Source: a virus
Lineage: Duplodnaviria; Caudoviricetes
Reading direction: 5' to 3' (one strand)
Virus record (IMG/VR): IMGVR_UViG_3300008450_000043
Span: 1 to 59,827 of that record
Length of the DNA: 59,827 nt
Positions 29,913-57,497 of the stretch are shown here, one piece after another (positions within the stretch are counted from its first letter, which is position 1; each line of letters opens with the position of its first letter). The translations under genes and the position numbers were made by a program. The notes beneath the pieces were generated by a model. That model saw nothing but the letters and a program-made list of their open reading frames with translations. It ran no database searches and was not told the origin of the DNA.

Positions 29913-30502
29913 GCTGCCTGCGGAACCCAACACCACTCAGGAAACTGCTGCCCCGGCTCTACGCGGGTGGCTGACGCTGGAAGCTGTGTCTTCAACGCTA
30001 ACCGGCAACCACATTGCTGGCAGTTGTGAAGCTTCGAGTGATGCTTAGACCGCCGTTGTGGCGAGACCAAAGCGTCCTGCGCTATCTCAGCAGCAAGCTC
30101 AGGAATGCAGGTTAGGCAGCCCCCTAGTGGCTGATTGCGGGGACAGGCGGCACAAGTGGCCGCTCGTCTCTCAACTTCTTCCATAGGAGCCAACTCCATC
30201 CCAGTCTTCAGCCATGCCGAGAAGGCTTTGCTGGCATTGGACAGCGTCTCCAGAGTCGTCCGACCCGTTGGGACTGTCTCACTGCCCCGGCAATAGGGCT
30301 TTAGCAGCCCCATCTGCATGCAAATATCGTGCTCAATTTCAGCCGGAGGTTGGACTTTGTGCCCATTCTCAGACTGGTAGTTGAGGATTTCTTGAATCAG
30401 TTTTCGGGCGGAGCTCCGACTGGAGAGGGTTCTCCCCGTTACAGGGGAGACCCATCGCCAAGCGCCACCGGGAGGGAGAGGTGCGTTGTGGTTAATCTTC
30501 AT
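29888..30502 (-). CDS. Cys-rich hypothetical protein
   Basis: CAAC, CLTC, CQQCGC, WCW; ATGA overlap with giant gene stop. Confidence 0.7.
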   Translation of the reverse strand: MKINHNAPLPPGGAWRWVSPVTGRTLSSRSSARKLIQEILNYQSENGHKVQPPAEIEHDICMQMGLLKPYCRGSETVPTGRTTLETLSNASKAFSAWLKTGMELAPMEEVERRAATCAACPRNQPLGGCLTCIPELAAEIAQDALVSPQRRSKHHSKLHNCQQCGCRLALKTQLPASATRVEPGQQFPEWCWVPQAAQAGQASS

Positions 30503-33500
30503 TGTTGCCAGTGAGGGAGAAGTTCTCCATCCAAAATGCGACGCTGCAACTTGGATTGCGCGTATTTCCGGGCGGCACTAGATATGCTGTCCAGAGCTTT
30601 TTGGGCGGCTTCTCGTTCTACTTGGCCACGCTCAGCGAACCGAACAAGGTTATTGATGACGTTGCCACTCTGCAACATAGCCGTCATCTGCTCTCCGTAG
30701 AGAATCAGAGCTTCACGGGCAACGTCGGAGTCAAAGCTTGACAGGATAGCCCCGTCTGGGTCGATGCCCGCGGCACGATCTTCAGGGTCCTTCCATGTTT
30801 TGAAGGCCATCTGACTTTCCGGCGGCGACAGGTAAAGGCCCGCGCTGACCAGAGGAGTGATGATCTCATCCGTATGAGGGGACTCCATGTCAGGCAACAA
30901 CCGCTTGGTGAACGGAGCAAACCAGAAGGAGGTGACTTCTTTGCCCCGTGCGTTGAGGATAGCCGGGCGGTCAAAGAGCAGGGAAGAGCCGGGCAGGACG
31001 CTTTGCAAGGCGTCTGACCAAGTCTTAGCCGTCTCGATCATCGGGGTTTCCCCGGTCTCGGAGAGCAAGCCCCGAGTCATATCTTCCACATCCCGCAGGA
31101 TACGGGGGTTGGTGACTCCGCCCACCCATGAGGAAGCCATCTTCATGAGCACCTTATCAAGGCTGGCCCCGCCTTCAGCCCGCCCGAAGAGCAGCTTGCT
31201 AGCATCTTCCAGTCCTTGGAGGGGCTGCTTGGCAAACATTGCCCGAGTCAGCTGAATCATGGAGTTCACGGCGAACTGGGAGGGGCGAACCCTCCGGCCT
31301 TTTTCTTGGGCGTTGATGACTGAATCCGACAGTGCAGCAATGCCACCCAGCAACAGGTTGATTCCGGGCAGGTCCTTCCAGTTCGCGTAGAACGAGCCGA
31401 TCTTCAGCACGTTGGGCTTCCAGAATGGGGCACGCAGACGGAGCTGGTTGCGCTTCTCAGCGTCGGCAGGGCCGTCACCATAGGCAGCAATGAAGGGTTC
31501 TTCATCGTCAGCCATAGCCCGGAACATCTCAAAGACTGCCATGGCCAAGCCAGCTGTCAGGAATGTGGACATGAACCCTTGAGACATGAGCTTGTAGAAC
31601 TCCTGTGAACCACGCTCCACTTGCTGGCGGCGGTAGGTTTCGCTGATCATGCTATCCGGCATCCATGAAGATGGGGACATGTTGTAGGCTCGGAGGAACG
31701 AGACGGGGAAGAACGACATCGCCAACGAGAAGTCGAGCATGTTCGCCAGTGAGCGAGCAAACGGGACCAGCAGAGAGGTTGCCCCTCGGGTCTTGCGTTC
31801 AAGGCTACCAAAGATGCCGTCCATGACCCATCCAGCGAAGCCCTTCGGCTGCGAGGATAGGTTGGCAACATTGGCAGAGATGCGGCCTTCTGTAATGATG
31901 TCAGCCCCGGCGCTCAGGTTCTTGGCAAGAGAGTCCCGGTATTGTTCGAGGAGTTCATTGCGGCGAGCCTCACGCATCAGGGCGGGGTTCTTGGACAGGG
32001 CAAAGCTTGACGCTTCTCCATCCAGCTGGTTCTCAATTTGCCGCATGACAGTCTCTTCTGGGCTGAATGCCTTGCTCAGAAGCTCACGCATCTGGTCAGC
32101 ATCGTAGCCCTGCTTGGTAGCCAAGTGAGCGATAGCCATACGTTGACGGGCCATGTTGGCAGGAACCCCAACAAGGGCATCAATGACCATCATGACACGG
32201 CCAAGCAAAGAGTAGGGCTTGGTGATCTTACCTACCAGTGGCAGGTCACGTTCCAGACGGGAGAGAGACTCGGTTTGCTCAGACTGGAATCGGGTAGAGC
32301 CAGTGAACAGCGCTCGTTTCATCTCCGTGATCGTCTCGGCACGGGTCGCGGGGTCAAGCAGCAGGGCCGATTTGAATATGGTGAATAGATTGCGGGCCAT
32401 CAGGCTGGCACGATTGCCTTTTGGAGCCGTCATAGCGTAGCCAACTGCATTGTTGGTCAGGTCCATGATGGATTGCAGCGAGCCGAAGACAAGGTTGACC
32501 TGCTGTGTGCCGAACCCGGAAAGGATTCCAGCCTTCCACATCGAGGTGGGGACTTCCACGAGGTAGGTCCAGAGTACCTCGGGGTGCTTTTGGAGCAGCC
32601 CCTTGAGGCTATTGGAGCTCACCAGTTGTTTCAAGATGAGGTCTGCAACCTTGCTACTGAGTTCCCGTCCAGCGTCGAGGCGCTGGATAGAGTCCTTCGG
32701 CATAGCATTGATAGCAGCCAAGTCGGCCTCCAGTTGCTCAACGACTTTGGTGTCGTAGGTTGGGAGCTCCAGTGACCGGGCTATTGCAGAGTAGAACTCC
32801 TCAGAACGGAAGGCTCCCATGCGGGCAAACTGTGCCAGCTCTTCCGAGCGGGACAGCTTGTCCACCACAGTAGCGGCAGACGCTGCGAGGTCAGAGCGCT
32901 TGTATCGCTCGATCAATTTCTGGATGTACTTGGCTTTCTCTTCTTCGTAGGCGATCTCGATGTACTTCGCCACTAGCTTAGCCTGTGTCTCGTCCAGCTC
33001 TCCAACTTCCACCAGCATCTTGGTCAGGCTAGCAACGCTGGCAAGTTGGTCAGAGACATGGGCTTTGACTTCCTCACGGAAACGGAAGGATTGACGGACA
33101 AGCTGAGCGGCGTCCTTCATGGGCAGCACTTCAGCACGAGCTCCTTCAAGCAGGGCAAGAGTGCGGGTAAGCTTATCCACCTGTTCCTGAGTTGGAGGCC
33201 CATTGAAGTTGGGGTCCCCTCCGGGAGCAAGCTGCCTGCGGATGTCTGCCATCGAGCTGTCAAAGGCTTGACGTAGGATGTCTGCATCTTCGGCGTTCTG
33301 CATGAAACGACTCCATACAGTGTTTGGAACCTTCTCATTGTCTGGGCTGCCGTCACTCAGCTTGGCGGAAACTTGACGAGAGACTTCAGCCTGAACGCGC
33401 TTAAACCAGTCGTCAAAAGCCCCTTTATCTGCGGGCGGGATACGGCCTTGCAGGCGCTTAGCAACTCGCTTGACCATGACTTCTGCCACAGCTTCAGCCA

Positions 33501-36500
33501 GTTCGTCTCGCGGGCGGCGGCGTTGGGCGTCAGCCAACTCGGCTTCGTCTTGCTCAGCCTCGGCAATATCCTTGTCAGACACGCCTTTCTTCTTGGCCTT
33601 GGCTTTGACTGAAGCCTTGCGGACATCTTCCCCAACCACGCCGTCAACGACACCACCGCTGATCTTGGCGGGGTCACCAAGTTCACGCTCAATCTCTTCC
33701 ACAACCTTATCCACTCCCATGGTTTTGAGAGTGGCCTTGGTGCCGCGGATAAAGGAGGTGCCATAGGTAGCAACAGCGCGGTGAGGGTCGAGGATTTTAT
33801 CCTGTGCGGTTTGAACGGAACGCAAGTTCGCGCCAAAAGCAGAGGCTTCTTTTGTGACTTCGACAAGGATTGCCGCCTCGGCAGCCCGGAAGTTACCCTT
33901 TACATCAGGGTCGGTAGCCTTGATTGCAGCCTGCGTAGTCATTTTAAGAACAATGTTCTTAGCGACGTGCCTGACTCTCTCGGGCTCACTAACGTCATCC
34001 CGAATCTTTGCCGTCAACGCCTTCATATCGTCGCCAGTCATCGGCCCACTGACCGTGTGCTTCTCAACCAAGTCCCCAGCACGTTTAATCAGCTCGGGCT
34101 CAGTCAAAGAGTCATAGTCCACTTCCATATCAGCCAACGCTTCCATGGCTTCGCGGACATCTTTGGCCGCGCCGTCGAACATTCCAGACTCCAAGTCCTT
34201 CTTCGTCCGTTGAGCGGTGCCAAAACGAGCATCCCCATAGGCAGTAGATGCCGCAGCCGTTGCAATGAGACGCTCAGCAATATCGGGGATGCCGCCTGTG
34301 ATTTGATCTACTGTCATGCCGTTGGCGGACAGGAACGAAGCAGTGTTGAGAGCTGCGCGTAGAGACACAGGGTCTGCGGAGGCATTCCAGCGAGCGGCCA
34401 CCCGGCGGAAGTAGGCCGTCAAGTAGGCGAGCACTCGGTTCAAGGAGCGAGGCTCGGTCTTGGTGATGGCCCGGACATCTTCCGTCGTGAACCCCGAGCG
34501 AACCCGCTGGCGGGTCCGGCGAAGGTACTCGTCGGCAAGGATTGCCATGGCTTTGGCCTGCTCAAGCGGCGTCATGTTGGGTCCGTCACCGGCGGCACGA
34601 GCCACTTCTTCTGGAGAAGCGTCGGGTCCAGCAATCGAACGAGCTAGATTTCGGCGTTCTGCTGGGTCCATACCCAGCCCAATACGGATGAGGTCCGTGT
34701 CAGAAAAACGACGGTGAATTTCGAGGTGATCAACCTCTTCCTCAAGCCCAGCACGAAGGCGGCGTTTGATGTCCGCTTCGGACATACCAGCAGTTCTCCA
34801 CTCAGTGACTACCTGAGCTAGATTGTTCACGTCAACGTGGATGACATTCGAGTCACGGTTGCCCGTCACCCAAAGTGTGAGTCCTGTGCCTTCTGGGGCA
34901 ACAGTTGCCTGAAGCGGGGTGTTGCTATCAACTTCCTCCAAGATGGAAGTGACCAAGCCCAAAGCCGCGGCACGTTGTGCGGGGAGAGCCGGAGGAGACC
35001 CAGCGGGTTTCAGAACAACAGAGGCGTTAGGGTTTGTGCCCGGAGAGGAAGTCTGAGGACCTGATACAGGCACTTCATCGTTCGTCACCTCTTCTACCGT
35101 CTGCTCCAGAGTCTTGTCATCGGGGTCTGAGACATCTTCATTAGTCTCGTTTTTAGCCGCGGCAATAGCGGGAGAGGTGGCCTTGATAACGGCAGCCGCA
35201 ACAGGAGTGCCCGACTCAGGCACGAAGAACAGCTTGTTGAGTAGGGCCGCAGTCTTGACTCCGTTGGAGGGGGACAAGGACATCAGTCGGAGCGACTCCA
35301 CCACTGCCGTGTGATACACCGAACCAAGGTTCACCTTGATCTTGGCAGCCGGGTTGAGGAAGTCCATCAGCAGCTGAGCGATGAAGCGGGAAACGCGGGA
35401 CAGAAGTCCTTTGAAACCAGTTCCGCCTGCCGCTTTTTGCTCGTTGAGCGCTCGGACAAAAGACGGGTTGGTGTAAAGACCCATGACAAACTCGCGGACA
35501 TTCTGGGTTTCTTTGGGGAACATATCCCCAAAAAGCTTCACCGCTTCCATACGCAGCTCTTCCAGAGCCACCAGTGTGGGATGAACACCCTCGCCGCGAC
35601 CAAGCGTTTCCAAGGCTTGACCAATACCGCCCTCAACCGCGCTACCCAAGGCACGATTGAGCGCTTCTTGCGTCATACGCTGGAGCATTGCTTGCTGCAC
35701 GTGCTTGGCAAAAGCCTCCATGATACGAGGACTATCCCCTTCAGGGAAGGCGTTGAGGTCCACAATCAACTGGTTGCCTTTCCATGCAACTGGAGTCGAG
35801 GTGTTGCCGTTTGCAACAGCGGAGACAACCACCTCAAAAGAGTAGGACTCCCGAACTTTTTCAAGAAGCTCGGCCAACATTGAAGCAATGGCACCATCTT
35901 TAACTTCCACGGCTGCCTGAGTTGGTGGCGCAAGAAGAGGGATGCGAGCTTGTTGGTAAGCCGTATCAGGGTCTATCCCGGCCTCAATAGCTGCGGTGTA
36001 CCGCGCCATATCGAGAGGCTCACGACGAACAGAAGGCTGGAAACTCTTCGCAGCTTCTGTCCGATTCTTGGCACGGTTGCTGAAGTAGCTCAGCAGGCGA
36101 GTCAACGACTGCGCCGACATCTGCATGGAGCTATCATTATCGTTCCTCCAATTAGTTGTATCTACTCCAAAGCGTTCCAGCTCTTCGCGGAACCGTTGAA
36201 GCGCCTCTACGGAGAACCGTGGGGCGGCAGGGTTCGCAGGCATGTCGAACATAGGACCCAACAGGGCTCTGAGGTTCTCACGAATAGAATCAAAAACCAG
36301 CCGCTCGGCCCCACGCTGAGCTCGGAGACGAGCTGCCTGAAGCGTTTTGGCGTTTTCAATCGTTTGGGTCAGCGTCTCTCGCTCTTGCTCAAGACGCTGC
36401 CTGTATTCTGGAGACAGGTCTGGCCGCCTCAAGTCTTCCTGAATTTGTGCTAAAGCCTCTTGGGCTGTGGGGAGACCTTCAACCGTGGGGGCCAAGAAGG

Positions 36501-39500
36501 GAGACTCAATACCTGAGAGGGTAGCAATCTGATAGCGCACAATATCGAGATGCTCCAGCATCCCCGTGCCACTCGTATTCTTGGCGATCGTCACCATCTC
36601 CTCAAGAGACATCTGGTTGATCTCCCCAGCGCTATAAAGCGGGTTGCCGCTTGGCTTTTGTGTAATTTCGAGAAGTGCCGTCACTGTCTCCTCATGTAGC
36701 CGGACAAGAATGCGGGCAAGGTTGGGGAACTTACGGGCTGTCTGTCCTGAGAATCCAAGACTGTTAACTTTGGGAAGCAGTCTTGATACCTGCTCCATTT
36801 CTACCTCAGTCAGTTCTGGGCCATAAGTTAAGGTGACTTCACCCGTTTGAGATGCAACAGTAAAGGCTGCTCCTCGGCGGTGAAGGTCCAAGATTTGACG
36901 GGCGGTAGCGAGCTCTTCATTACTGGCACCATTTCGACTAAGCACGCGGAGAGTGCGGTCAGGGTCACCGTCTAAGACACGCTCGCTAAGAGCGATGCCC
37001 AGCAGAGACTTCTCATCATTGGTGAGAGGTTCCTCTTCAGCGTCTAGCGCTTCGGGGGCCGCAACGCTACCTGCAAGCAATTCTCCCGTAGAACCGTCAA
37101 CGGGAGCATCCAATGACATCAGGACAGCGTCCCCGCCAAACGGGTCTGCTCGGCGGAGCATCCGGTAAAAGGACCTCACTACTCCCCGCGTTACGAGGTC
37201 AAGATTGATGCTTCCAACACCCTGCTTCTTGCGGAAGGTGTTAATGACTGTCTGCACCACAGCATTCTGCAACCGTCCTGACGCAATAATTCCCGCGAGG
37301 TCAGCATGGCGAGCAATCAGATCAGCCTCGTTTTCGCTCATGTACTCCACGGCTCGTTGATATTGAGCTGCTTCTTCTGCGGCGAATTGTTCCAACTCTG
37401 CCGGGTCTTTGATGTTTTCTGGGACTGGAACGACACTTTCAGGACGCTCTGCCCAGACAGTCGTAGCGAACTGCTTCTCCATTTTACGGACAATCTTGAG
37501 TAGTCGGAGCTGCTCTTGTTTAGCGTCGTCCAGATTTTTAAGCTGGTTGCCCTCACGCTGAAGCGACTGGACTCGACGAGTCACCGCATACAGTTGGTCC
37601 TTGGCTTCAGTCAAGGACATGCCGTACTCCTGCTCTAAAGCGGACAGCTGTTCAGCTATATCAGCTGAACGCTGGCCGATTGGGCGGCGGTCATTCCACA
37701 GTTGAGCATAAGCGTCTGGTCCATCCTCGATGGACACCTCTGCATCAGCCCCCAAGGCGGCAACTTTAACATTCTTCACGAGGCGAGTATTAGGGTCATA
37801 CTCAATATGAGGGTGAACTGCGTCCCCAACTTCAGGCGGGATGAATACAGAGTACCCTTTGGAAATCTGCATAGCCGTGACTTCCGGCACGTTAGTAAAG
37901 AACCCTTGCACGATTACACGCGGGGCTCCTTCAAGTTGTTGAATGATAAAAGTATCGCCGCTGCGCTGGACAACCTCAAAAGTTCCTCCGGGAACGATCA
38001 GGTTATCGCCCACTTTGCGAACTTGGGCAGAACGCACTTCCATCACAGCGCCCCCTACAAGGGCCGCGTGAGCCTTTGCCTCAGCAAGGTCAGTAGTGAC
38101 GTGCTGTGCAGGCATGACTTGGTTCGTTCCCTCTGTGCGAAGGGCATAATAATCCCCGGCCTTGTCGTTTCGGCGTGGGGCTTGCTCATTGTAAGACAGC
38201 ACACGATAAAGCTTGGTCCCTTCTGGGAGAGAATGAACAGGAGACTTTTCCAAGGCGCTGTTTAGGGGCACCGACCCCTTGCCAAGACCTGAAGTCACCA
38301 CCGAAAACCGACGAGACTTATTGTCAGCAAGAACTTGAGCGGCCTCACTACGGAGTTTTGCGGCAGCCTTCTTGTTCTTAGTAGCCGCTGCGGCCTGACG
38401 CAGGGCTTGTTCTTTCTCAAACTCGGCTTTGGTGGCGAACGGCCAGTAAGAAGCCTCTTCCAATTTAGCTTTGTCTTTAGAGCTAAGTTCTCCCTCAGCA
38501 CGAGCGGGCTGTGCGACCTCTTGAGGAATCAAGCGATTGATCGAGGGAAAAAGCCCCTCGCTGTAAAGTTTATCCCGGTCTTTTGCTTTCTCAATTTTGG
38601 AGGGGTCTCCCCGCACAAACTTGGTGGAGTCTCCTTCTACGCGACCCCCAGTCCACAAAGAGGTAGGAGTATCTTCCTCAGCTGGGAAGCGAGCCTGATA
38701 TTCCTCTTGGATGCGGCTCATCACAGCATTGGCAAAGGAAAGATGGCGCGAGATGTCAACGCTCAGATTGAGCGTGTCTAGTTCTTGCTTAGAGATTCCA
38801 AGCTTTGCCGCGGCGGCTTCGCGTTGCTTGCGAATTTTGTCCCGCAACCTAGCCTTATTGACTCGAATGACTGGGCGTCCATCTTCCCAACCCCATTGCA
38901 CAAGCCCGCGGTCAACAGTGTCTTTGACAAAGTTAGGAACCACATAGGCGTCAATTTTGCGGAGTGTTTCTGGGCGAGTATCACCTTCATACGTCCAGTC
39001 GGGAGGAGTCACATTCTCGTCCACTGGAACATCTGTGGCCTCCGTGGCAAGTTCCGCAGCCAAGTCCACTTCGGATAGAGGAGCGCTCACTGCATTAACC
39101 CTACTCAGGTTGGCGATGTCCTGAGTCAAAGTTTGCTTTGCCTGCTCAAACATCCGCCGCTCATTTGGTTTGATCTGTGGGTCTTCCAGCGCTTTCTGAA
39201 CTTGCAGCAACGACCGTTGCAAGTCTGCAACACGGGCGGCTGTTTCAGGGCTTGGGCGCGGACGAGGTGGAGGGGCCTGACGGGCGGCAAACATTGGCGG
39301 GCGCACAACTGCTGCCTGAGTACCCTCAAGCTGGGTAATCAGCTGCGCCATCTTCTGGGTGTTGAAGCCCCCAAGGAAATGCTCCAGAGCATTTGTGTAC
39401 TCTAGCAGAGCTGGGCGAGCCCCGACTAGACCACGGATAAACTTGAGCAGAGCCTTAATCCATTTGGAGAACCCTGTCTTTTGAGGGGCAGTCAGACTGA

Positions 39501-42500
39501 CTAAGTCACTGGTCAACTTCCCTTCTATGATAGCTTGCACCACTTCAGCCATTCTGACATCGTCAGACGTAATTGCGCCGAAGCCCGGGTAGATTTCCTC
39601 CATCACTTTAATGAGGCCCGCGTCTCTTACGACAGGAAGAGCGTCGGCATAAAGCTTGCGAGCTTCTGGGTCTGAGCGAAGCAACAACTCTTCAGCAAAG
39701 TGAACTCCTTCATGGAACAGTACATCTCGCACTGCCGGAGATCCTTCTTCAGCAAGCTCATCGGCAAAGAGCACAATAACCACACCATCCTGAGTCGGGA
39801 CTGTTGCTCCGTATTTGCCCGGAGGAAGAGTCTGCCCCACAAAAGCTTCAGCCTCGGCACGAGTGTTAAAAATGTTCACTGCTCCACCGCCAAGCACGGT
39901 TTCAATCAAGCTGAGTTTGCTCTTAGAAATCGGGCGGCCTTTCTGGGCCTTGACTAGTTTCTCAACCTTTTTGATTGGGTCTCCGGCTTTAGCCTTTGCG
40001 GCTTTGCGGGCCGGAGGAGCGACAACTTCTGTCAAAGTTTTCTGAGCTTCGGCTTCGGGGGCCGGAGACTTAGCGTCTTCGATTGCCTGTAAATCAGCCT
40101 CGACACTCATCAGCTCATCTGTAAGAGCCTCATACTCGCTATCAGAAACAGTGTTTTCGGGGTCAAGGCTGTTAAGCCGATTCCTCAGCTCAGCAGCTTT
40201 ATCTCTGAGCGCCTGCTCGGGAGACTTCGCAGGCGTAGGGGCTGTAACCCCCACGCCCGGAGTTGCAGCTGGAGTTACATTTTCCGCTTGGCCTTGGGCT
40301 TGGCCTTCGACTTGCCCGCTGACGAGAGGGCGATTGCCACCGCCTGTTTCTGCGGCTTGCCTTCCTTCATCATCTTGGACACGTTCTTGCTGACGGTTTT
40401 CTGGGATGTTCCTTTGTATAGAGGCATCGGGTGTTGTGGGTGTTGGTGTTTGTGTTGGTGTTTCTGCCGCAACCGGAGTGGCTGCGGAAGCTGGTGTCTG
40501 CGGGAGTTCAGGCGTAAAGACTTGCTTAGAGTTACTATCGTAGATTGCGACAATTCGGTTTGCCGGAACAAACCCGGGGTTCTCCGCAGTGACTGACCTC
40601 AGCCTACGATACTCATCAAGAGGGATGTCCATGATGAGGACTTTATCCCCAAATTTCTCGCGGCTCATAGGCCCCGCCACGCTTGTATTGAGGCGTTCAG
40701 CGAGGTCTTGATTGTTCCCAAAACTGTCTGTTGTTGCGTCAATAACTCCCTGTTTCGAGTAATCGAAGCGGCCAGACTGCAAGATAGCTCGGATAGATTG
40801 ACCAGAGGTGCCGTGGGTCAAACGAATCATCCCTTCTGGGATAGAGGGGAGAGCCTCCGCAGTGATATTAGCGGGGGGAGTTTCAGGCACTGGAGAGGTA
40901 GTCAGAGCTTCCTCCGAAAATTTAGGGGTAGCTGGAGTAACTGCTTCAGGAGCGGGAGCAGGAGCAGGAGCTGCCGCGAGCGGAAGAGGTTGGAGATTTT
41001 CACCAAAATCTCGCTCGGATAATGTGGCCGGGGTCTCTTCTCCAAAAAGCGCGGCAATGTCTTCTATCCGAACATCCGTGTAGGAGACCGGGATTGCCGG
41101 ATTGTTGGGGCGCTCTCGTGTAAGGGCTGCTTCACCGGGCAGAGCTTCTCCAAAACGGTAATAACGCACCCGCCCTTCAGGGACAGGGGGCTCTTCAAAA
41201 ACTTTGGGCTCGGGAGCAGGAGCAGGAGCTTCAACAGGAGCTTCAACAGGAGCTTCCTCCGCAGGAGGAGCCGCCGCGGCTGCCGGTTTCCTTAGCCCGC
41301 CCTGAATCAAGTTATTGGCAACTTCAGGGGTGAATTGAGCAATGTCCGCTTGAGTGTATCCAAGCTCAGCCAGCTGACGATTCATGTCTTTCGTCACAAA
41401 CAGGCCAACGCCACTCGCAGGAGGGGCTGCCGGAGCAGGGGCCTCAGCCGGACGAGTTGCCGCACGTGGGGCAGGGGCTGGAGGAGTTGCCTCAGCAACA
41501 GGCGTCGGGGCCGCTGCGGTTGGAGCCTCACCCGGACGAGTTGCTGCACGTGGGGCAGGGGCTGGAGGTGGCGCTTCAGCAGGCGCAGCAGTTTCAACAA
41601 CTGGGGGCTTCCGCAGTCCTGATTGAATCAAATCCGTTGCCGCTTGAGGGGTAAGCTGATTGATGTCGGCTTGCGTGTACCCAAGATCAGCAAGCTGTTG
41701 CCTCATGTCCCGCGTCACCATCATCGGGAAGCTGACCCCAGAAGTAGGAGGTGCTTCCTCAACAGGAGCAAGTCCAGCAGCAAGCCTTGCCGCAGCGGTC
41801 CGCTCAGCCAATTCACCAGCCTGCTTACGCAACTCAGCTGCGGTCTGCGGCGAGCCTGTTTCTTCAAGCCCTTTGCTGGCAGACAGAAGATCAGCCACGG
41901 GTTTGGCCCGCAAGGCAGCCTGCTTCTCCGCCGAGTAGTTGGCAGCCGCTTTGACCCCGCCAAAGAAACCACCCAAGAACCCACCCCACGCACCAGACTC
42001 AAACACGTCCGACGCAATGTCTCCAATAGACCGGTTCGGGTCGTACGTCATCTTGTCAACGAGCCCATTGACCAACGAGTCTGACGCTTCCTCAATCGCT
42101 TCGGGGACCACTTCTTTGCCAGCTGTCTTGAAAAGATAAACGGCAAAGTTGTCTTTGAGGGCCTTGGCTGTGCCACGGCTTACGCCGCGCAAAGTGCCTG
42201 AACCTGCAAGGGCAGCTTCACCTGTGTCTCCTCCCAGCTTGTTGCCAGCCCACGTCACAGCCATGGTGACGAACCCACGGCGCAAGGCTTGATAGGTAGC
42301 GGTGTCCACGGCGGTCTTCTCTGCTTGAGCCAGCTTGGCCTCATACTCAGGGTCCTCTTTATCGAGCGTGGAAGACAAATCTGAGAGGACTTGATCTCGA
42401 ATCTCAGGATAGGAGCTGCCAGCAGCCTGCAACCCTGAAGCAAGAACGACAGCTGCCTGACCTCCCGCAGAGTGGATAGCCTGCTCTCGGAGCAACATCT

Positions 42501-43860
42501 TAGCGACTGGAGCAACTTCAGCTTCAGCGAGCCCGAGGGTCTTGGCAATTTGCCCGGCAGTCTGCTTCTCGGCAAGCAAGGCCCGGATTCGGGGAAGTTG
42601 CAGCCCCACACGTGAGGCAGCGCCACTGGCAAGAGAAGACGCAGCTCGGCCTGTCAGGGCAAACCCTGCACGAGCAGCGGTGCGGGCCGCTGCACCAGAA
42701 ACAAGGGCTCCAGCACCCCGTCCAACAGGACCTAGTGCAACAAGCGGAGCCATCTGGAGAACTTGGCTGGACGCCTGAGAGGCAAGAGTTGCCCCACCAA
42801 TGTTCTTTGAAGCCTCCCCAAGCTCACCAAGTTGTTGAGTTGCAGCCGTCAAGCGGTTCTCGTCCATCTCATCTGCCAGCCCCGCTAGAGACTTCAGGCC
42901 ATAGTACTGCTGCACCAAAGAAGTTCCGGCCATGCGGGCACCAAGGAAGGTCTGCTTCATCGGGTTTTTCCACCAGTGGTCATTCTGCTTGCGCCACTTC
43001 TCCACAATGTCGGCTTCTGTGGCCTGTGGATTGCGGGAGAGTTCATAGTCCCGCATCTTGGTGAAGTCGTTGCCAATGCCAATAAGCCCCTCACCGTACG
43101 TGCTCTCCGTCTTGAGCATGTTGTCAGAAACCGAAGCAGCTACCTGATCACGAAGCTCCCCCAACTCAGCCATCGCTCGGATTTTGGCGTCACGGTCCAG
43201 AGAAGATTCTGCAACAGCTTTCTTGTACTTATCTCGGTCGAGAACTAGCGAGGGGGAAGCCACAAAACGTCCGTTGAAGATTGCGAAATCTTCCTCGTCT
43301 TGGAAAACTTTGCGCAACGTGTCGCGCTCTTTTTCTTCAGGGGCAGCAATAAGTCCTTCGACCACCCCCGGGAGTTGGGCGGTTGCCCCAGCGGCGGGCG
43401 AAGCTGCCGCCTGAGCTAAGTCGAGCCCTAGTGTGGCGAGTTGGGCGATTGCCCCAGCGGCGGGCGAAGCTGCCGCCTGAGCTAAGTCGAACCCTAGTGT
43501 GGTGGCGTCAGTAAGAGGTGCCAGAGGTTTGCGAGACAAACTGTCTTGAAGCAGCTTCTGACGGGACTCTTCTTCAGCGCGATACTGCTCCACAGAGCGA
43601 TCGGCGTCTTGTTGCCATGTAGGAGAGCCACTCAATTCAGCGGCTTTGCGGCGAGAGAATACTTGAAACCGGTCAAAATCCTCCCGCGTAAAGGCATTTT
43701 CATCCTTTAGCGAAGCATCCAGCAGCATGTTGCGCCAGTTGTTGAAAGCCGCAAGTTGAGTGGGTTTATCCGCAGCTACAAACTGAGGGTCACTTTCAAC
43801 TTCTCCCCAAGAAGGGATTTGACTAAGAGGCAACGTGGAAGAAGCAGGAGGATTGGGCAT
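30499..43860 (-). CDS. Giant (4453 aa) polyvalent / internal virion ejection protein
   Basis: 13.4-kb ORF at end of structural arm; HGT-type ART-like segment, LYR-type ART-like segment, HEGVH zincin, N.REF...NP motif, LPD38/gp16-like C-terminus. Confidence 0.85.
40275..40427 (-). CDS. Overprinted 50-aa basic protein inside the giant gene (alternative frame)
   Basis: [41 protein letters not shown]...; preceded by A/C-rich leader like other genes of this phage. Confidence 0.7.
43373..43502. repeat. 66-bp tandem duplication near 5' end of giant gene
   Basis: TLG(F/L)[13 protein letters not shown](I/T)AQL twice, near-identical DNA. Confidence 0.85.
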
Positions 43861-52412: not shown

Positions 52413-52958
52413 TCAAAGCAAAACGTAAGGAATACGCTTTTGACCGTGACGGTCCATTTCAGAGTAGGCTAGTGTCTGGAAGGGCAGCCACTGAGGGGGA
52501 TAGATCGTCTGGCAACCCAAACTCGAAGTCGAGCTCAAGCTACCTTTATGGATGTTAATAGCGATTCCAAAGCTAATACCGGAAGCCCCGTCTCGCATCA
52601 CGGGAAGCTTTTCCTCTGGGTTGTCGGGGCGAAAGGCTGGATAGCCGCCCCCGGGGCGAGAGATTCCATGCTTGCCCTTGCGGTACCAGTGGACACCGGG
52701 GACAAGAGTAGCGATTCCTTCTCGAAAAACTGACGGGTCACAGTTGGCATTGACAGTCAAATAGGCCGTTGGGGAGACTAAGGCAATAGCGTCGTCGTAA
52801 ATGCCACGGTCGTTTTTACCGGGTTCACCCATTGTGTCGAGGTAGTAGCCCCGAATACCCACCAAAAATACAGGCACCACAGGCTTCAAGCTGCCAACCT
52901 TCTTGAGAAGATCGGGCAGCTTGATTTGTGGGGTGGAGGCTGGGATAATTGAGCTCAC
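52413..52958 (-). CDS. Putative endolysin with YkuD/L,D-transpeptidase-like catalytic motif
   Basis: VGIRGYY, YDDA, INIHKG...TSSLGCQT; next to membrane-protein genes. Confidence 0.65.
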   Translation of the reverse strand: MSSIIPASTPQIKLPDLLKKVGSLKPVVPVFLVGIRGYYLDTMGEPGKNDRGIYDDAIALVSPTAYLTVNANCDPSVFREGIATLVPGVHWYRKGKHGISRPGGGYPAFRPDNPEEKLPVMRDGASGISFGIAINIHKGSLSSTSSLGCQTIYPPQWLPFQTLAYSEMDRHGQKRIPYVLL

Positions 52959-53488
52959 AGGACTGGATTCTTACCGGGAGTAAATCTGCTCCCAGTCAAC
53001 TTGAGATAGCGTTCTTGGGCCTTGCTGATTGCCGTCGTCCAAACAGCAACTTCAGCGGCCCGGGTAAGTTGGGACGGGAGGTCTGTTGCAGGATGCAACA
53101 GAGCAGCGCGGCGGGAGGCTTCGGCTTTCAGAATAGCTTGTTCAAGCAAAGCGGGCTCCATGGCGTGGGCCGTTGCTTTAAGCACTTCCTCAGAGGTATG
53201 CACTACAACTTGCCCCGTGGGGGACTTTACCCACGACTGAATCTGAGCACAGGAAGTCAGTAGGAAAAAAGAAAGAATCACAAGCTGCGTCGGCGGCTTG
53301 GTGACACCCAAAAAGATAGCTTTGAAGATGCCAATCACGCCCCCATTTTCCTTGAGAGACTGGAAAGCACGCCCACTAAACATTAACAAGAGCATGACAA
53401 GCGGGGTGTAAGATGCCCATGCAGGCGGGACAACTTGCCGAACGGCCTCTTGAAAGCCCGGGTCATTGATAAGAAGGTCAGAGTTCAT
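52955..53488 (-). CDS. Membrane/lipoprotein lysis protein (holin- or spanin-like)
   Basis: Hydrophobic segments plus internal lipobox-like FLLTSC; ATGA-coupled to lysin. Confidence 0.5.
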   Translation of the reverse strand: MNSDLLINDPGFQEAVRQVVPPAWASYTPLVMLLLMFSGRAFQSLKENGGVIGIFKAIFLGVTKPPTQLVILSFFLLTSCAQIQSWVKSPTGQVVVHTSEEVLKATAHAMEPALLEQAILKAEASRRAALLHPATDLPSQLTRAAEVAVWTTAISKAQERYLKLTGSRFTPGKNPVL

Positions 53489-53532
53489 AGTAATTGAAGA
53501 TCAGAGAGGGCCACAAAGAAGCAAGGAGGATT

Positions 53533-53967
53533 TTATTTTTTACGGCTCAATATACTAAGGGAGTGCCCGTATGCCTCAACTGTCGCATCTAAGTTGATTC
53601 CCCGCATAACTCCAGCCTCGCGGTCCATATTGCCAACACTCAGTATTCTCCTGCCATTTTTTAGAGTGAATATATGATAAAATCCCTTTCCACTTGTCAC
53701 GGCTTCATTAGTAGCTGTCCGTAGTCTCCCCACATCTTCAGGGACAACAGCGTTCTCAAAATCCGCATAACGACACCCAAAAACCTCCGGGTTGATTGCA
53801 TAAAGTGCAAACATCTGTTTAGACCACCACAGCTCATCAGTGTCTGGATACCACTCCCAAACTCCAGCTCCGTTGGCTTCCAAGGCTTGTTGAAGACGGA
53901 GCCTCTCTCGACGAAGAGTAGTCTCAATCTCTACTATCCGAGTGGTGATGGCATCGGCGGAGTTCAT
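53533..53967 (-). CDS. Stand-alone PAS (PAS_3-like) domain protein
   Basis: ATG 53967 coupled to upstream TGA; RL..ALEA...GVWEW...TDELWWS.QMFALY, V.PED, GRRI..VG, GINLD. Confidence 0.8.
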   Translation of the reverse strand: MNSADAITTRIVEIETTLRRERLRLQQALEANGAGVWEWYPDTDELWWSKQMFALYAINPEVFGCRYADFENAVVPEDVGRLRTATNEAVTSGKGFYHIFTLKNGRRILSVGNMDREAGVMRGINLDATVEAYGHSLSILSRKK

Positions 53968-54233
53968 TTTGAGTGGGAGAGAAACCAAGCTAGAAAAGCT
54001 TGGACCGCCTGCAAAGATGCAACGGCCCCAAAACCGCCGACGATCATCCACTTATAGCTCTCCAACTTGTTGATTCGATCTGACAACTTTTCTACCTCGC
54101 TTAGTGGGGCAAGCAAACTTACACGGGCTGCTAGGTGGTCAATACTCTGAGCGAGCTTAGCTAAGTCCGTATGCAGGCGGCTGTCGCGTTCCCGACGCAG
54201 CCTGTCCAGTTCATCTTCGAGACTTTCTCCCAT
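53964..54233 (-). CDS. Holin-like protein (coiled coil plus C-terminal TM, XhlA-like)
   Basis: RI.KLE..KW followed by hydrophobic helix. Confidence 0.6.
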   Translation of the reverse strand: MGESLEDELDRLRRERDSRLHTDLAKLAQSIDHLAARVSLLAPLSEVEKLSDRINKLESYKWMIVGGFGAVASLQAVQAFLAWFLSHSK

Positions 54234-54378
54234 GGTAGTTTTGGTAGGTTAAGCCCCGCAGCTTTTTGCTGCGGCACATTTGCTGGGTGAAGGGTGAAGA
54301 GTGAGCGTTTTCATTAAGGATGAAAGCGCCCAACTAATCGAAGAAAGTCCCTAAAAATCAAGCCACTTTTGGCGGCAA

Positions 54379-54945
54379 TCAACGGAACTTCGGGCCGATA
54401 AACCAAGTCACCAAAGAGTAGCGAACGCCCAACTTTACGGGAGTCACGCGATGGCGGTTGAACGACGGGAAGAAGATCACGTCGCCTTGGTTGACAAACT
54501 GCCCTTCTGCGAGCGGGTCACTGGCAAACTCCAACTTACCGCCTGTGTAGTCATCGGGTTTCGATAACTGAATGACCATGCTCATCTTGCGATCAAACGG
54601 GGTCGCTTTGAGCCAGTTCAAATCTTCGTGCCATCCATAGCCGCCAGAGTTGTCTGCGTTGTACTCGGTGAATTGAACTTCGTGGAAGCCCCTTACATCG
54701 AAGCCAAAAGCATTCGCATTGGCTTGGAGTGCCAGCTTCTCGATACGGTCGTAGAACCAGCTCAAGGTCGGGTCGGAACGGCTGAGCCATCGAACAGTGG
54801 AGCGTCGCAAATGGTCGTCCACTACTGATTTTCCGCCGTGCCCAACCGTCGCTTGAACTGGCCTATGCGTAAGCCCGTATTTGACGAGAGTCGAACATTC
54901 TTCTTCGGAGAGTGCTTTACCAAAAAGTTGCCACCATGAGGTCAT
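54379..54945 (-). CDS. 2OG-Fe(II) oxygenase (prolyl-hydroxylase/PKHD-like)
   Basis: RRS.V.W, WHED, RK.S, Y.GG.L, FPS...HRV.PV..G.RYSLV.W. Confidence 0.92.
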
Positions 54946-55709
54946 ACAAAGGCTTGATTCCAGAATTGTTTTGCTGCTCGCATCTGTTCTTCCGTCTTGG
55001 AAGGCAGACGCCAGTCTGGATAAGCCGCTTGGATGCCGAATACAAGGTCAAACTTTCCGCAAGCACTTCTAAAGCGTGCAGTCTCCTCACTGATAGCGGC
55101 GGAGTATTTCTTCTCCAGACCATCACCAGCAGGAACGATGTCGAGGAACCAAGGACGCGCACCTTCGGTCACGGCAAAGGCATAGATACCTTCGGACGTG
55201 GACACAACGGAGTCTTTGGGGCCGGGGTCACCTGTTGGGCCTGTGGGGCCTGTGGGTCCAGTAGGACCGTCGGGACCTGTTGGGCCGGGAGGACCAGTAG
55301 GACCGGGAGGGCCACCGGGGTCGCCAGTAGGTCCAGTGGGGCCTACGGGTCCAGTAGGGCCGTCGGAACCCGGAGGACCCGCTGGTCCGGGGAGACCGGG
55401 AAGGCCGTCGGGACCTGTCGGGCCAGAAGGGCCGGGAGGTCCGGGAGGGCCACCGGGGTCGCCAGTTGGTCCCGTAGGTCCAGTTGGTCCGGGGTCTCCT
55501 GTGGGTCCTGTGGGTCCGGTTGGCCCAGTAGGGCCATCGGAACCTGTTGGGCCGGGGGGTCCGGGAGAGCCAGTAGGTCCGGGAGGGCCACCGGGGTCGC
55601 CGGGGGTTCCTGCTGGCCCAGTGGGTCCAGTAGGCCCGGTAGGGCCCGTTGGTCCGGGGGAACCCCCGCCACCTAATTCAAGAGTTCCTGTGAATGGGTT
55701 GAAAGTCAT
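54942..55709 (-). CDS. Collagen-like protein
   Basis: About 50 Gly-X-Y triplets (GPT, GPP, GDP) with three GG interruptions. Confidence 0.92.
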
Positions 55710-56285: not shown

Positions 56286-57497
56286 TTAGGCTTCGATCAG
56301 CTCACCGTCACAATCCGTGACGCTAAGGACCGGGCCGCAGCGGCGGAAGCGAACAACCGTGGCCACATCCGGCTGGAGGGGCTTGGTAGCGCACTGGAAC
56401 ACACCGCGGAAGCGACCGATGGTGCCGTCCGGGTTGTCGGTTTCGTGCAGGATGTTGCTCCAGCGGAACTCGCCCATGTAGGAAACTGGGTCGAACTTGA
56501 TGCCAGCACCGGGGTTGGTGAGTGGCTTCGGCACTTGGAACTCGCAAGCCTCACGGCAGAAGACGACAGCGTCTTCATACAGAGCGGTCTCGTATGCGGG
56601 GTTCAACACCCAGCGGTTGCCAGAGGTAGCCGCTTCCTCAACGAAGGGAAGGACCTCGACCCAGTCACCGTCAGCGATGTTGTGGCGCTTGGGGAACATA
56701 TCCATGAGGTGGTACCAGCCCTTGTAGGAGCGCTCCACACCGAGGGGAGCCAGAAGCTCATTGACCCGGCTGGAATAGCGGAAGTCTTCGCGGATGTTCT
56801 GCACACCAAGGCCGAACAGAAGCTGCTCCTGTGCTTCAGGGGAGCACATGACAGCATAAACTGGACGACCATTTTCCATACCCCAAGGCTCCACACCTTC
56901 ACGCAGGTTACGCAGATAGATCTTATCAAGCACAGCCTGATTGATCTTACCGATCTTGGTGACATCCGCTGGGATGGTGAACTCATCTGGGTCGCCTTCG
57001 ACCGAGGACATACCAGCCACGATGGTGAGCTTGTGCTCAGCGAGCTCGGTGTACTTGTCACGGTAGTGGTTTTCCCAAGCCCACTGGGTGTTGTACTTGA
57101 GGATGTTGAACATCGCAGTGAGCTGGTCTTTGCGCTTGGCGGCAAATCGCAGGTCATTGACGCAGATTTTTGGCGACTGAAGCGCTGCTCCTTGAAGGCC
57201 GTAGGAGCGGACTGTCTTGCCAAAAGAGATGTTGCCGGGAGAAGGCACGCAGCTCGTGGTGGTGCCTGCGGCTTGGTTGGAGATAGCACTCCATGTCAGG
57301 CCACTGGAAGGCAATGCGCGGTCCCAAGTAAGGACGTTGATTGAGTCACCCATTTCTTCAGGGAACTGAGAGCGGGGGGCGAGCTTAATCCAAGCGCTGG
57401 CGTTGATGACTTTTTGATGGATGTCATCCGAGATGCGACCGGCTTCGGCCACAAGGATAGAGTTGACGTTGTCGAGACTGAAATCACCGAGAGACAT
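56286..57497 (-). CDS. Major capsid protein (putative)
   Basis: 403 aa, strongly biased codons, after portal and scaffold, followed by hairpin. Confidence 0.75.
   Translation of the reverse strand: MSLGDFSLDNVNSILVAEAGRISDDIHQKVINASAWIKLAPRSQFPEEMGDSINVLTWDRALPSSGLTWSAISNQAAGTTTSCVPSPGNISFGKTVRSYGLQGAALQSPKICVNDLRFAAKRKDQLTAMFNILKYNTQWAWENHYRDKYTELAEHKLTIVAGMSSVEGDPDEFTIPADVTKIGKINQAVLDKIYLRNLREGVEPWGMENGRPVYAVMCSPEAQEQLLFGLGVQNIREDFRYSSRVNELLAPLGVERSYKGWYHLMDMFPKRHNIADGDWVEVLPFVEEAATSGNRWVLNPAYETALYEDAVVFCREACEFQVPKPLTNPGAGIKFDPVSYMGEFRWSNILHETDNPDGTIGRFRGVFQCATKPLQPDVATVVRFRRCGPVLSVTDCDGELIEA

Follow-up and report, generated by a model that had tools for sequence, protein, structure and literature searches.

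The window analysed here is the complete IMG/VR virus record IMGVR_UViG_3300008450_000043 (Caudoviricetes), 59,827 bp long, with a completeness estimate of ~91%. Its minus strand carries a run of four small genes that the initial annotation had described as a PAS sensor domain wired into a lysis cassette, and all four open reading frames (ORFs) are found where it had placed them. In the direction of transcription, the run begins with an 89-amino-acid (aa) tail-anchored membrane protein (53964-54233), recognised from its ORF and hydropathy and previously called holin-like, and continues with a 144-aa stand-alone PAS_3-type protein (53533-53967), supported by ORF, profile, model and fold evidence. 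These two genes, which recur as a pair in other phages, are the main subject of this work. They are followed by a 177-aa membrane protein, a candidate holin or other lysis membrane component on the basis of hydropathy and conservation (52955-53488), and by a 181-aa putative endolysin with a GTG start, identified from its fold, a conserved motif and the neighbourhoods of its family (52413-52958).

The stop codon of the 89-aa gene and the start codon of the PAS gene share an ATGA, which we read directly in the sequence (...TCA AAA TGA / ATG AAC TCC...), in agreement with the coupling noticed previously. The longest ORF at the PAS locus begins at a GTG at 54051, and every relative begins at the ATG instead. 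The PAS gene is separated from the 177-aa gene by 44 nucleotides (nt) with no terminator-like site between them, and the 177-aa gene in turn runs into the 181-aa gene with a GTGA overlap of stop and start. No obvious Shine-Dalgarno sequence was seen by eye before the four genes. Upstream of the 89-aa gene lies an intergenic region of 145 nt (54234-54378, minus strand), which may mark the start of the 89-aa/PAS/177-aa/181-aa transcription unit. A terminator-like hairpin is found there directly after the preceding oxygenase gene (54376-54362) and none within the four-gene run; this is weak evidence, as terminator-like sites in the region are at chance level (5 found vs 5.4 expected), and so are the promoter counts in the scan.

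A stand-alone PAS domain and its membrane partner

The 144-aa protein is a genuine PAS_3-type domain without an output domain, as had been proposed. This conclusion is based on sequence homology, on profile matches to known structures, on a structural model and on the fold matches of that model. An exhaustive phmmer search with the 144-aa protein returned 13,595 proteins at an expect value (E)<=1e-3, and 1,376 at E<=1e-10. The top matches are multi-PAS_3 sensor kinases, with an identity per repeat of up to ~39%. With three exceptions, the best 150 matches are proteins of 362-2,837 aa in which several stretches are matched; a domain scan of eight of these 150 found multiple PAS_3 repeats in all five long ones (E 1e-38 to 1e-110), two of which also have HisKA/HATPase domains. 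The Pfam model PAS_3 (PF08447) gives the window protein 20.6 bits, below the cut-off of 25.6, and its stand-alone relatives P0002, P0009 and P0030 score 24.9, 27.7 (above the cut-off) and 20.6, respectively. A profile built from the six sequences of the stand-alone family matches three PDB structures of PAS domains (3mr0, FixL 8js5 and 3nja), and NCBIfam gives a match to the PAS region of a diguanylate cyclase (1.7e-13).

The AlphaFold2 (AF2) model of the 144-aa protein (pLDDT 86.5, pTM 0.74) has an N-terminal helix at residues 3-31, a PAS core at 34-127 and a disordered end at 133-144. The core includes a five-stranded sheet (strands 34-40, 45-48, 96-102, 107-115 and 120-127) with helices between the strands. 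A Foldseek search with the model gave 137 PDB chains at E<=1e-3, with PAS/LOV domains ranking best. Neither the domain scans nor the model revealed a further or output domain in this soluble protein. No ligand or cofactor motif was recognised by eye in the sequences of the window and its relatives: neither a LOV-type Cys motif nor a His in the F-alpha helix, the haem helix of FixL, was seen. The pocket region is kept across relatives that are 47-87% identical, as would be the case in any folded PAS domain.

The partner protein has a charged coiled-coil N-terminal part of ~60 residues followed by one moderately hydrophobic segment rich in Gly, Ala and Gln at residues 63-86, which hydropathy estimates to be a membrane segment (Kyte-Doolittle 1.6 over the 19 aa of residues 63-81). 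This segment is conserved in the 89-aa relatives, with Gly66, Gly67, Ser73 and Gln75 invariant, and only 3-4 residues come after it (SHSK, NPKP, HK), four in the window protein. No longer form in which a membrane anchor is fused to the PAS domain was found among the longer proteins searched, which is weak evidence. Co-folding of PAS residues 1-132 with the 89-aa protein gave no verdict, with a score of 0.00 against a mark of 0.32; the prediction was run without controls and counts neither for nor against binding.

We also observe an L-R-R-E-R stretch in the N-terminal helices of both partners, within DRLRRERDSRL in the 89-aa protein (54170-54200, minus strand) and TTLRRERLRL in the PAS protein (53880-53925, minus strand). 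The motif is invariant in the PAS family, and its counterpart in the 89-aa protein is lost in one lineage (L020, below). It could be a pairing surface or it could have arisen by chance.

The gene pair in other phages

A scan of viral contigs with the single PAS sequence returned nothing, its patterns being too specific, and scans based on alignments of the stand-alone PAS proteins led to L017-L020, four further contigs of IMG/VR, and to a near-identical metagenome contig (L021). In all five loci, a homolog of the 89-aa protein is encoded directly upstream of the PAS relative with a 4-nt overlap. For the window, L019 and L020 this overlap was read from the letters themselves, and for L017, L018 and L021 it follows from the gene coordinates. 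Scans with the 89-aa family led to the same four viral contigs only, together with four small protein clusters, and the relatives of the 89-aa protein, at 80% and 45% identity, each adjoin a PAS gene. One further candidate for a stand-alone PAS relative, L045, was rejected as a bacterial multi-PAS protein.

The loci belong to three lineages: the window with L021, L017-L019, and L020. Compared with the window, L017-L019 have an 89-aa protein that is 80% identical, a PAS protein that is ~50% identical and a major capsid protein (MCP) that is 29% identical; in L020, the 89-aa and PAS proteins are 45% and 47% identical, respectively. These comparisons show that the genes for the 89-aa and PAS proteins are a fixed module of two, whose ATGA overlap is kept in three lineages and, as far as the gene sequences show, translationally couples the two genes in every lineage seen.

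The initial annotation had proposed a survey of PAS genes beside holins, and conserved synteny is seen: the pair stays together in three lineages and lies near wall hydrolases in two, but in L020 it is located elsewhere. In the L017-L019 lineage, the pair follows genes for a scaffold protein, the MCP and a 707-aa repeat protein. Downstream of it are a coupled 147-aa soluble protein (L019 6501-6944), whose start overlaps the PAS stop and which has no family match, a Peptidase_C92-like protein (L019 6902-7453; 24.6 bits, under threshold) and an Amidase_2 protein (E 1e-30). The amidase is encoded ~1.2 kb downstream of the pair and is the only one in a 65-kb record with terminal repeats. Both in the window lineage and in L017-L019, the pair is therefore found less than 1.3 kb upstream of a wall hydrolase, and these hydrolases, YkuD-like and Amidase_2, are not homologous. 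The 89-aa gene is separated from the downstream lysin by the PAS gene and one or two more genes.

The L019 amidase has neither a signal nor a signal-arrest-release (SAR) segment, and this 12-kb locus offers no plausible membrane protein near it other than the 89-aa homolog. The 89-aa protein might therefore be the sole holin of the amidase lineage, with the PAS protein serving as a folding or assembly partner, a protein-binding scaffold without sensing. The invariant Gly66, Gly67, Ser73 and Gln75 are compatible with helix packing or a polar face, and a PAS domain that does not sense would agree with the lack of a cofactor motif recognisable by eye. We nevertheless judge this explanation very unlikely, given that the 12 kb covers only part of a 38-65-kb genome in which other holins may be encoded, that in the window phage the lysin is directly coupled to another membrane protein, and that a relative of the window phage lyses without the pair. 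The conserved PAS pocket also speaks against a non-sensing role, with the reservation given above for any folded PAS.

In L020, the pair lies between a PhoH gene and genes for a Zn-ribbon protein, a sigma factor and an ERCC4 nuclease. L021, in turn, differs from the window almost exclusively in the PAS gene. Over the genes that run from scaffold to 89-aa, protein identity between the two phages is 97-100%, and 76 of the 83 DNA mismatches in the compared kilobase (window 53608-54093, L021 5735-6435) lie in the PAS gene, almost all of them in codons 31-120. Within this gene, 37 codons differ synonymously and 19 non-synonymously. The L021 contig ends just past the PAS gene. The pattern looks like a recombinational exchange in which a diverged allele took the place of the PAS core under purifying selection, and it shows that the PAS gene is functional and exchangeable.

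Such an exchange between otherwise identical phages might also suit a part that has to match the host. In this respect, the pair could be a membrane-tethered decoy, in which a single PAS domain, anchored by the 89-aa protein, forms heterodimers with PAS sensors of the host by way of its N-terminal helix and beta-sheet and thereby blunts the stress or redox response of the host. The nearest relatives of the phage domain are indeed PAS_3 repeats of large sensor kinases, its N-terminal helix resembles the inter-PAS linker helices of multi-PAS proteins, and the PhoH and sigma-factor genes around the L020 pair make a neighbourhood of the host-takeover type. We consider this role unlikely, however. 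The modest identity of the phage domain to any host PAS (at most ~39%) does not point to a particular kinase that the phage recently captured or mimics, and a scan of 185,579 species genomes, which returned five loci, found no close stand-alone PAS copy or donor. Among those loci, L050, the one examined in detail, was rejected as a cellular stand-alone PAS because it is a PAS repeat inside a 1,849-aa hybrid kinase, and the matches in L051-L054 span just 40-79 residues. A decoy would also leave unexplained both the strict coupling to a membrane protein and the position ahead of lysins in two lineages.

Probable lysis genes downstream and the variable spot

The 177-aa protein has hydrophobic segments at residues ~19-37 and 58-87 and a helical C-terminal half. 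It had been labelled as a membrane or lipobox protein; the membrane segments stand and an L-T-S-C motif is present at residues 77-80, but this motif comes after ~76 residues with another hydrophobic segment, so that it follows two hydrophobic segments and not a normal N-terminal signal peptide. No family match was obtained for this protein in Pfam, PHROG, PADLOC or NCBIfam, and an Atlas look-alike search returned nothing usable. Its homolog in L002, the closest relative phage, is 56% identical, keeps the Cys of the motif as LCSC and is again encoded directly upstream of the lysin. We regard the 177-aa protein as a better candidate for the basic holin than the 89-aa protein.

The only family match of the 181-aa protein is PHROG 3000 (phrog_3000), whose function is given there as 'unknown'. 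No Pfam family was found at E<=0.1, and a 13-sequence profile matched no PDB sequence at E<=1. The model (pLDDT 82) has its best PDB match at E 0.02 with a TM-score of 0.40, and none at E<=1e-3; nevertheless, the 12 top-ranked PDB chains are all L,D-transpeptidases or relatives, including DpaA and Pgp2, which we take to belong to that family. In BFVD, five viral proteins match the model at E<=1e-3, one of which is named 'Lysin'. His137, Gly148 and Cys149 are invariant in the 13 sequences of the family, down to 34% identity, and we infer that His137 and Cys149 may be catalytic by likeness to the H...G-C motif, presumably the catalytic motif of the YkuD family. The description as a YkuD-like lysin is thus favoured by the L,D-transpeptidase matches and by the invariant His...Gly-Cys, with the reservation that the fold match is weak and that no Pfam or PDB sequence match accompanies it.

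Relatives of the 181-aa protein are encoded in 15 viral loci (L002-L016). Upstream of the lysin gene, 11 of the 15 have an ORF on the same strand that contains a strongly hydrophobic segment and ends no more than 900 bp away, as judged from a crude hydropathy test on raw ORFs and with near-duplicates among the loci (L006/L007, L011/L014 and L015/L016). Some of these hydrophobic ORFs are only 40-55 aa long, and two have a lipobox-like LSSC. The exceptions are L005, which has none, L010, where such an ORF is found only downstream, and L015/L016, where the only one overlaps a tail-fibre-like gene. Among GenBank phages, the lysin family occurs only in Bdellovibrio phage phi1422 (gp76, a hypothetical protein), where its gene stands at the genome end, preceded by the tail-fibre gene and two small ORFs. 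Since the relatives adjoin small membrane proteins in other phages, the 181-aa protein, which has no signal or SAR segment, is probably a cytoplasmic endolysin of a little-described YkuD-like family. The genes downstream of the pair are therefore plausibly lytic, as the fold, the invariant residues, the 'Lysin' of BFVD and the loci all indicate.

L002 is closely related to the window phage (MCP 74%, lysin 75% and tail fibre 60% identical). In this phage, a 379-aa signal-peptide protein replaces the block of collagen, oxygenase, 89-aa and PAS genes, and the membrane protein, the lysin and the tail fibre are kept. Because this closest relative is without the pair but keeps the membrane protein and lysin, the 89-aa/PAS module is accessory and occupies a variable spot. 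It is also rare: only four further IMG/VR contigs of 2.9 million have it, a tblastn search of 50,697 GenBank phage records detected no PAS relative, and the 89-aa protein gave only a chance-level match there (E 0.04).

Its rarity, its absence from L002 and its different context in L020 would all be expected of an unrelated accessory 'moron' module, for instance one for superinfection exclusion or another membrane function, residing in a recombination hot spot between structural and lysis genes, in which case its nearness to lysins would be meaningless. The flanking genes fit this picture as well, with collagen and oxygenase genes in the window and a repeat protein, an FkbM methyltransferase and others in L017-L019. 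We hold this to be rather unlikely. None of the PADLOC defence-system models matched the 89-aa, PAS, 177-aa or 181-aa proteins or the 147-aa protein of L019, short or overlapping junctions tie the pair to the downstream lysis genes in two lineages, and L019 shows no other membrane protein near a lysin that needs one.

The wider layout of the window is as follows. The plus-strand half encodes an integrase, a helicase-exonuclease, a family A DNA polymerase and a primase. The tyrosine integrase (1160-2095; Phage_integrase, 3.6e-08) suggests a temperate lifestyle, although the species-genome scan found no prophage copy of the PAS module. The minus-strand half holds the structural genes, including a single ORF of 4,453 aa (30499-43860). 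From 57,497 downwards, the order on this strand is the MCP (56286-57497), an acidic 98-aa protein, a 74-aa protein, a collagen-like protein (54942-55709; Pfam Collagen, 6.8e-20), a 2-oxoglutarate-Fe(II) oxygenase of the PF13640 type (54379-54945), the 89-aa/PAS/177-aa/181-aa genes and, after the 181-aa gene, an 856-aa tail-fibre-like protein with He_PIG and fn3 domains. The collagen-like and oxygenase genes overlap by 4 nt and are both missing from L002; the phage may thus encode a collagen fibre with its own prolyl-hydroxylase-like enzyme. As clues to the host, no tRNA was found in the window, and two of the five multi-PAS kinase clusters looked up, those of P0018 and P0022, have named members, all of them Chlorobiaceae (Prosthecochloris and Pelodictyon), which is only a lead.

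A possible regulator of lysis timing and its relation to known systems

The reading that we favour, tentatively and short of an even chance, is that the 144-aa protein acts in the cytoplasm as a PAS regulator, tuning the timing of lysis through a membrane protein of holin-like or XhlA-like type. In this scheme, the basic pair for lysis would consist of the 177-aa membrane protein and the 181-aa lysin, both retained by the closest relative without the module, and the 89-aa and PAS genes would form an accessory two-gene module at the head of the late lysis operon. The coiled coil of the 89-aa protein would face the cytoplasm, where the PAS protein could dock on it. A small-molecule or redox signal in the PAS core would then decide whether the contribution of the 89-aa protein to hole formation is delayed or permitted, and the module would thereby adjust the moment at which the cytoplasmic lysin, a YkuD-like protein here and an Amidase_2 in the other lineage, gains access to the wall. 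Binding, ligand sensing and the effect on hole formation are what we infer from the arrangement of the genes; functionally, the scheme would resemble a cytoplasmic antiholin that acts on a holin-like or XhlA-like accessory membrane protein.

A bolder version of the same proposal, which we find rather doubtful, is that the PAS protein represents a new kind of cytoplasmic antiholin. It would hold the coiled coil of the tail-anchored holin-like protein and release it on a metabolite, redox or oxygen/light-linked signal, so that lysis would be timed to host physiology and exchangeable PAS alleles would retune the signal.

Several observations weigh against a role in lysis timing. The pair of L020 lies among the PhoH and sigma-factor genes described above, and no lysin was recognised in 10 kb of that contig, whose record is ~16% complete. 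The two lysin-linked lineages are not fully independent, because they have a common gene order of scaffold, MCP and pair. The pair is found in none of the 15 other loci with the YkuD-like lysin family. In the window, it is part of a four-gene block with the collagen and oxygenase genes. This block occupies a variable spot that separates the capsid genes from those for lysis, so that a common insertion hot spot could explain why the pair lies near the lysin. Further points concern the 89-aa protein itself. Holins usually have a charged C-terminal tail, and the 89-aa protein is without this charged hydrophilic end. Its small size and single C-terminal hydrophobic segment agree with the earlier 'holin-like' label, but no Pfam or PHROG holin family was matched at E<=0.1 and none in NCBIfam; its sole Pfam and PHROG matches are weak coiled-coil ones, to DUF7201 (0.026) and to 'hol-like chemotaxis' (0.083).

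Membership of the XhlA family (PF10779) was considered for the 89-aa protein and rejected, which likewise weakens the lysis reading. An Atlas feature search had placed an XhlA cluster among the near neighbours of the protein (score 0.91, a lead only), and the XhlA-like protein of Enterococcus phage 9181 indeed has the same layout, with a coiled coil first and a membrane segment at its extreme C-terminal end. The hidden Markov model of XhlA, however, gave no match in the window at E<=10, and hhalign of the 89-aa family against the phage 9181 protein gave a probability of 0.1. As neither method finds sequence homology, the resemblance to XhlA is one of architecture.

What is new here is the fixed 89-aa/PAS module; its link to lysis is hinted at and does not amount to an established new mechanism. 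Stand-alone PAS proteins and accessory membrane proteins of lysis cassettes are kinds already known. Lysis timing is a central fitness trait of phages, and its known inputs are few, namely holin concentration, membrane energisation and superinfection signals as in T4-type lysis inhibition. If the proposed regulation is true, a ligand-binding sensor coupled to a membrane protein of the lysis operon would provide a direct route from host physiology to the lysis clock, in the form of a compact, transplantable switch. Even without a link to lysis, a bare PAS repeat with a membrane anchor is a tractable model of the viral reuse of host sensor parts, and the 181-aa protein draws attention to a family of probable endolysins with a YkuD-like fold that has been little described and has no Pfam model.

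The multi-PAS histidine kinases and diguanylate cyclases (PAS_3 repeats; 3mr0, FixL 8js5, 3nja) show the same homology, fold and preceding helix as the phage protein, which differs from them in being a single repeat with no kinase, cyclase or DNA-binding output and in its coupling to a small membrane protein. In addition, the region of the H-beta/I-beta loop is shorter in the phage PAS than in canonical PAS_3 repeats, and the Pfam score is just under threshold. The short PAS/LOV proteins PpSB1-LOV and SBW25-LOV, which are among the structural matches, have the same helix-flanked PAS core without an effector. In contrast to them, the phage PAS has no LOV flavin-Cys motif visible by eye, its flanking helix is N-terminal, and a partner is suggested by gene coupling. 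For the 181-aa protein, the best fold matches are YkuD-fold enzymes (L,D-transpeptidases, DpaA, Csd6 and Pgp2), and its invariant His and Gly-Cys resemble the catalytic pair of that family. It differs from these enzymes in having no Pfam or PDB sequence match and a TM-score of only 0.40, and in being a stand-alone, cytoplasmic protein in lysis-cassette positions of phages.

The closest architectural parallel of the 89-aa protein is XhlA of Bacillus PBSX and of Enterococcus phages (PF10779), where the passages on this protein describe an accessory 'holin-like' membrane protein that is needed together with the holin XhlB and the endolysin XlyA (PMC5589764, PMC10630273). Both proteins have an N-terminal coiled coil, a C-terminal membrane segment and a position at the head of a lysis cassette, but there is no detectable homology between them, and XhlA cassettes have no PAS partner and come from phages of Gram-positive hosts. 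The proposed logic, in which a soluble cytoplasmic protein modulates a membrane lysis protein, is that of the T4 antiholin RIII acting on the holin T, as outlined in the relevant parts of PMC8385771, where RIII is presented as a cytoplasmic antiholin, and PMC11413866. The regulator here differs in having a sensor fold, and the likeness, for which no homology is expected, is one of proposed logic.

A full-text literature search, judged mostly from abstracts, found no description of a PAS protein in a phage lysis cassette, and the nearest case was the PAS and helix-turn-helix (HTH) receptor VqmA-Phage of vibriophage VP882. This receptor is a PAS protein encoded by a phage, which detects a small molecule and through which the switch to lysis is controlled (PMC8284805). 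The common ground is only that a phage PAS protein is tied to lysis: VqmA-Phage is a transcription factor whose DNA-binding domain serves the decision between lysogeny and lysis, whereas the 144-aa protein has no output domain and is encoded within a late lysis operon.

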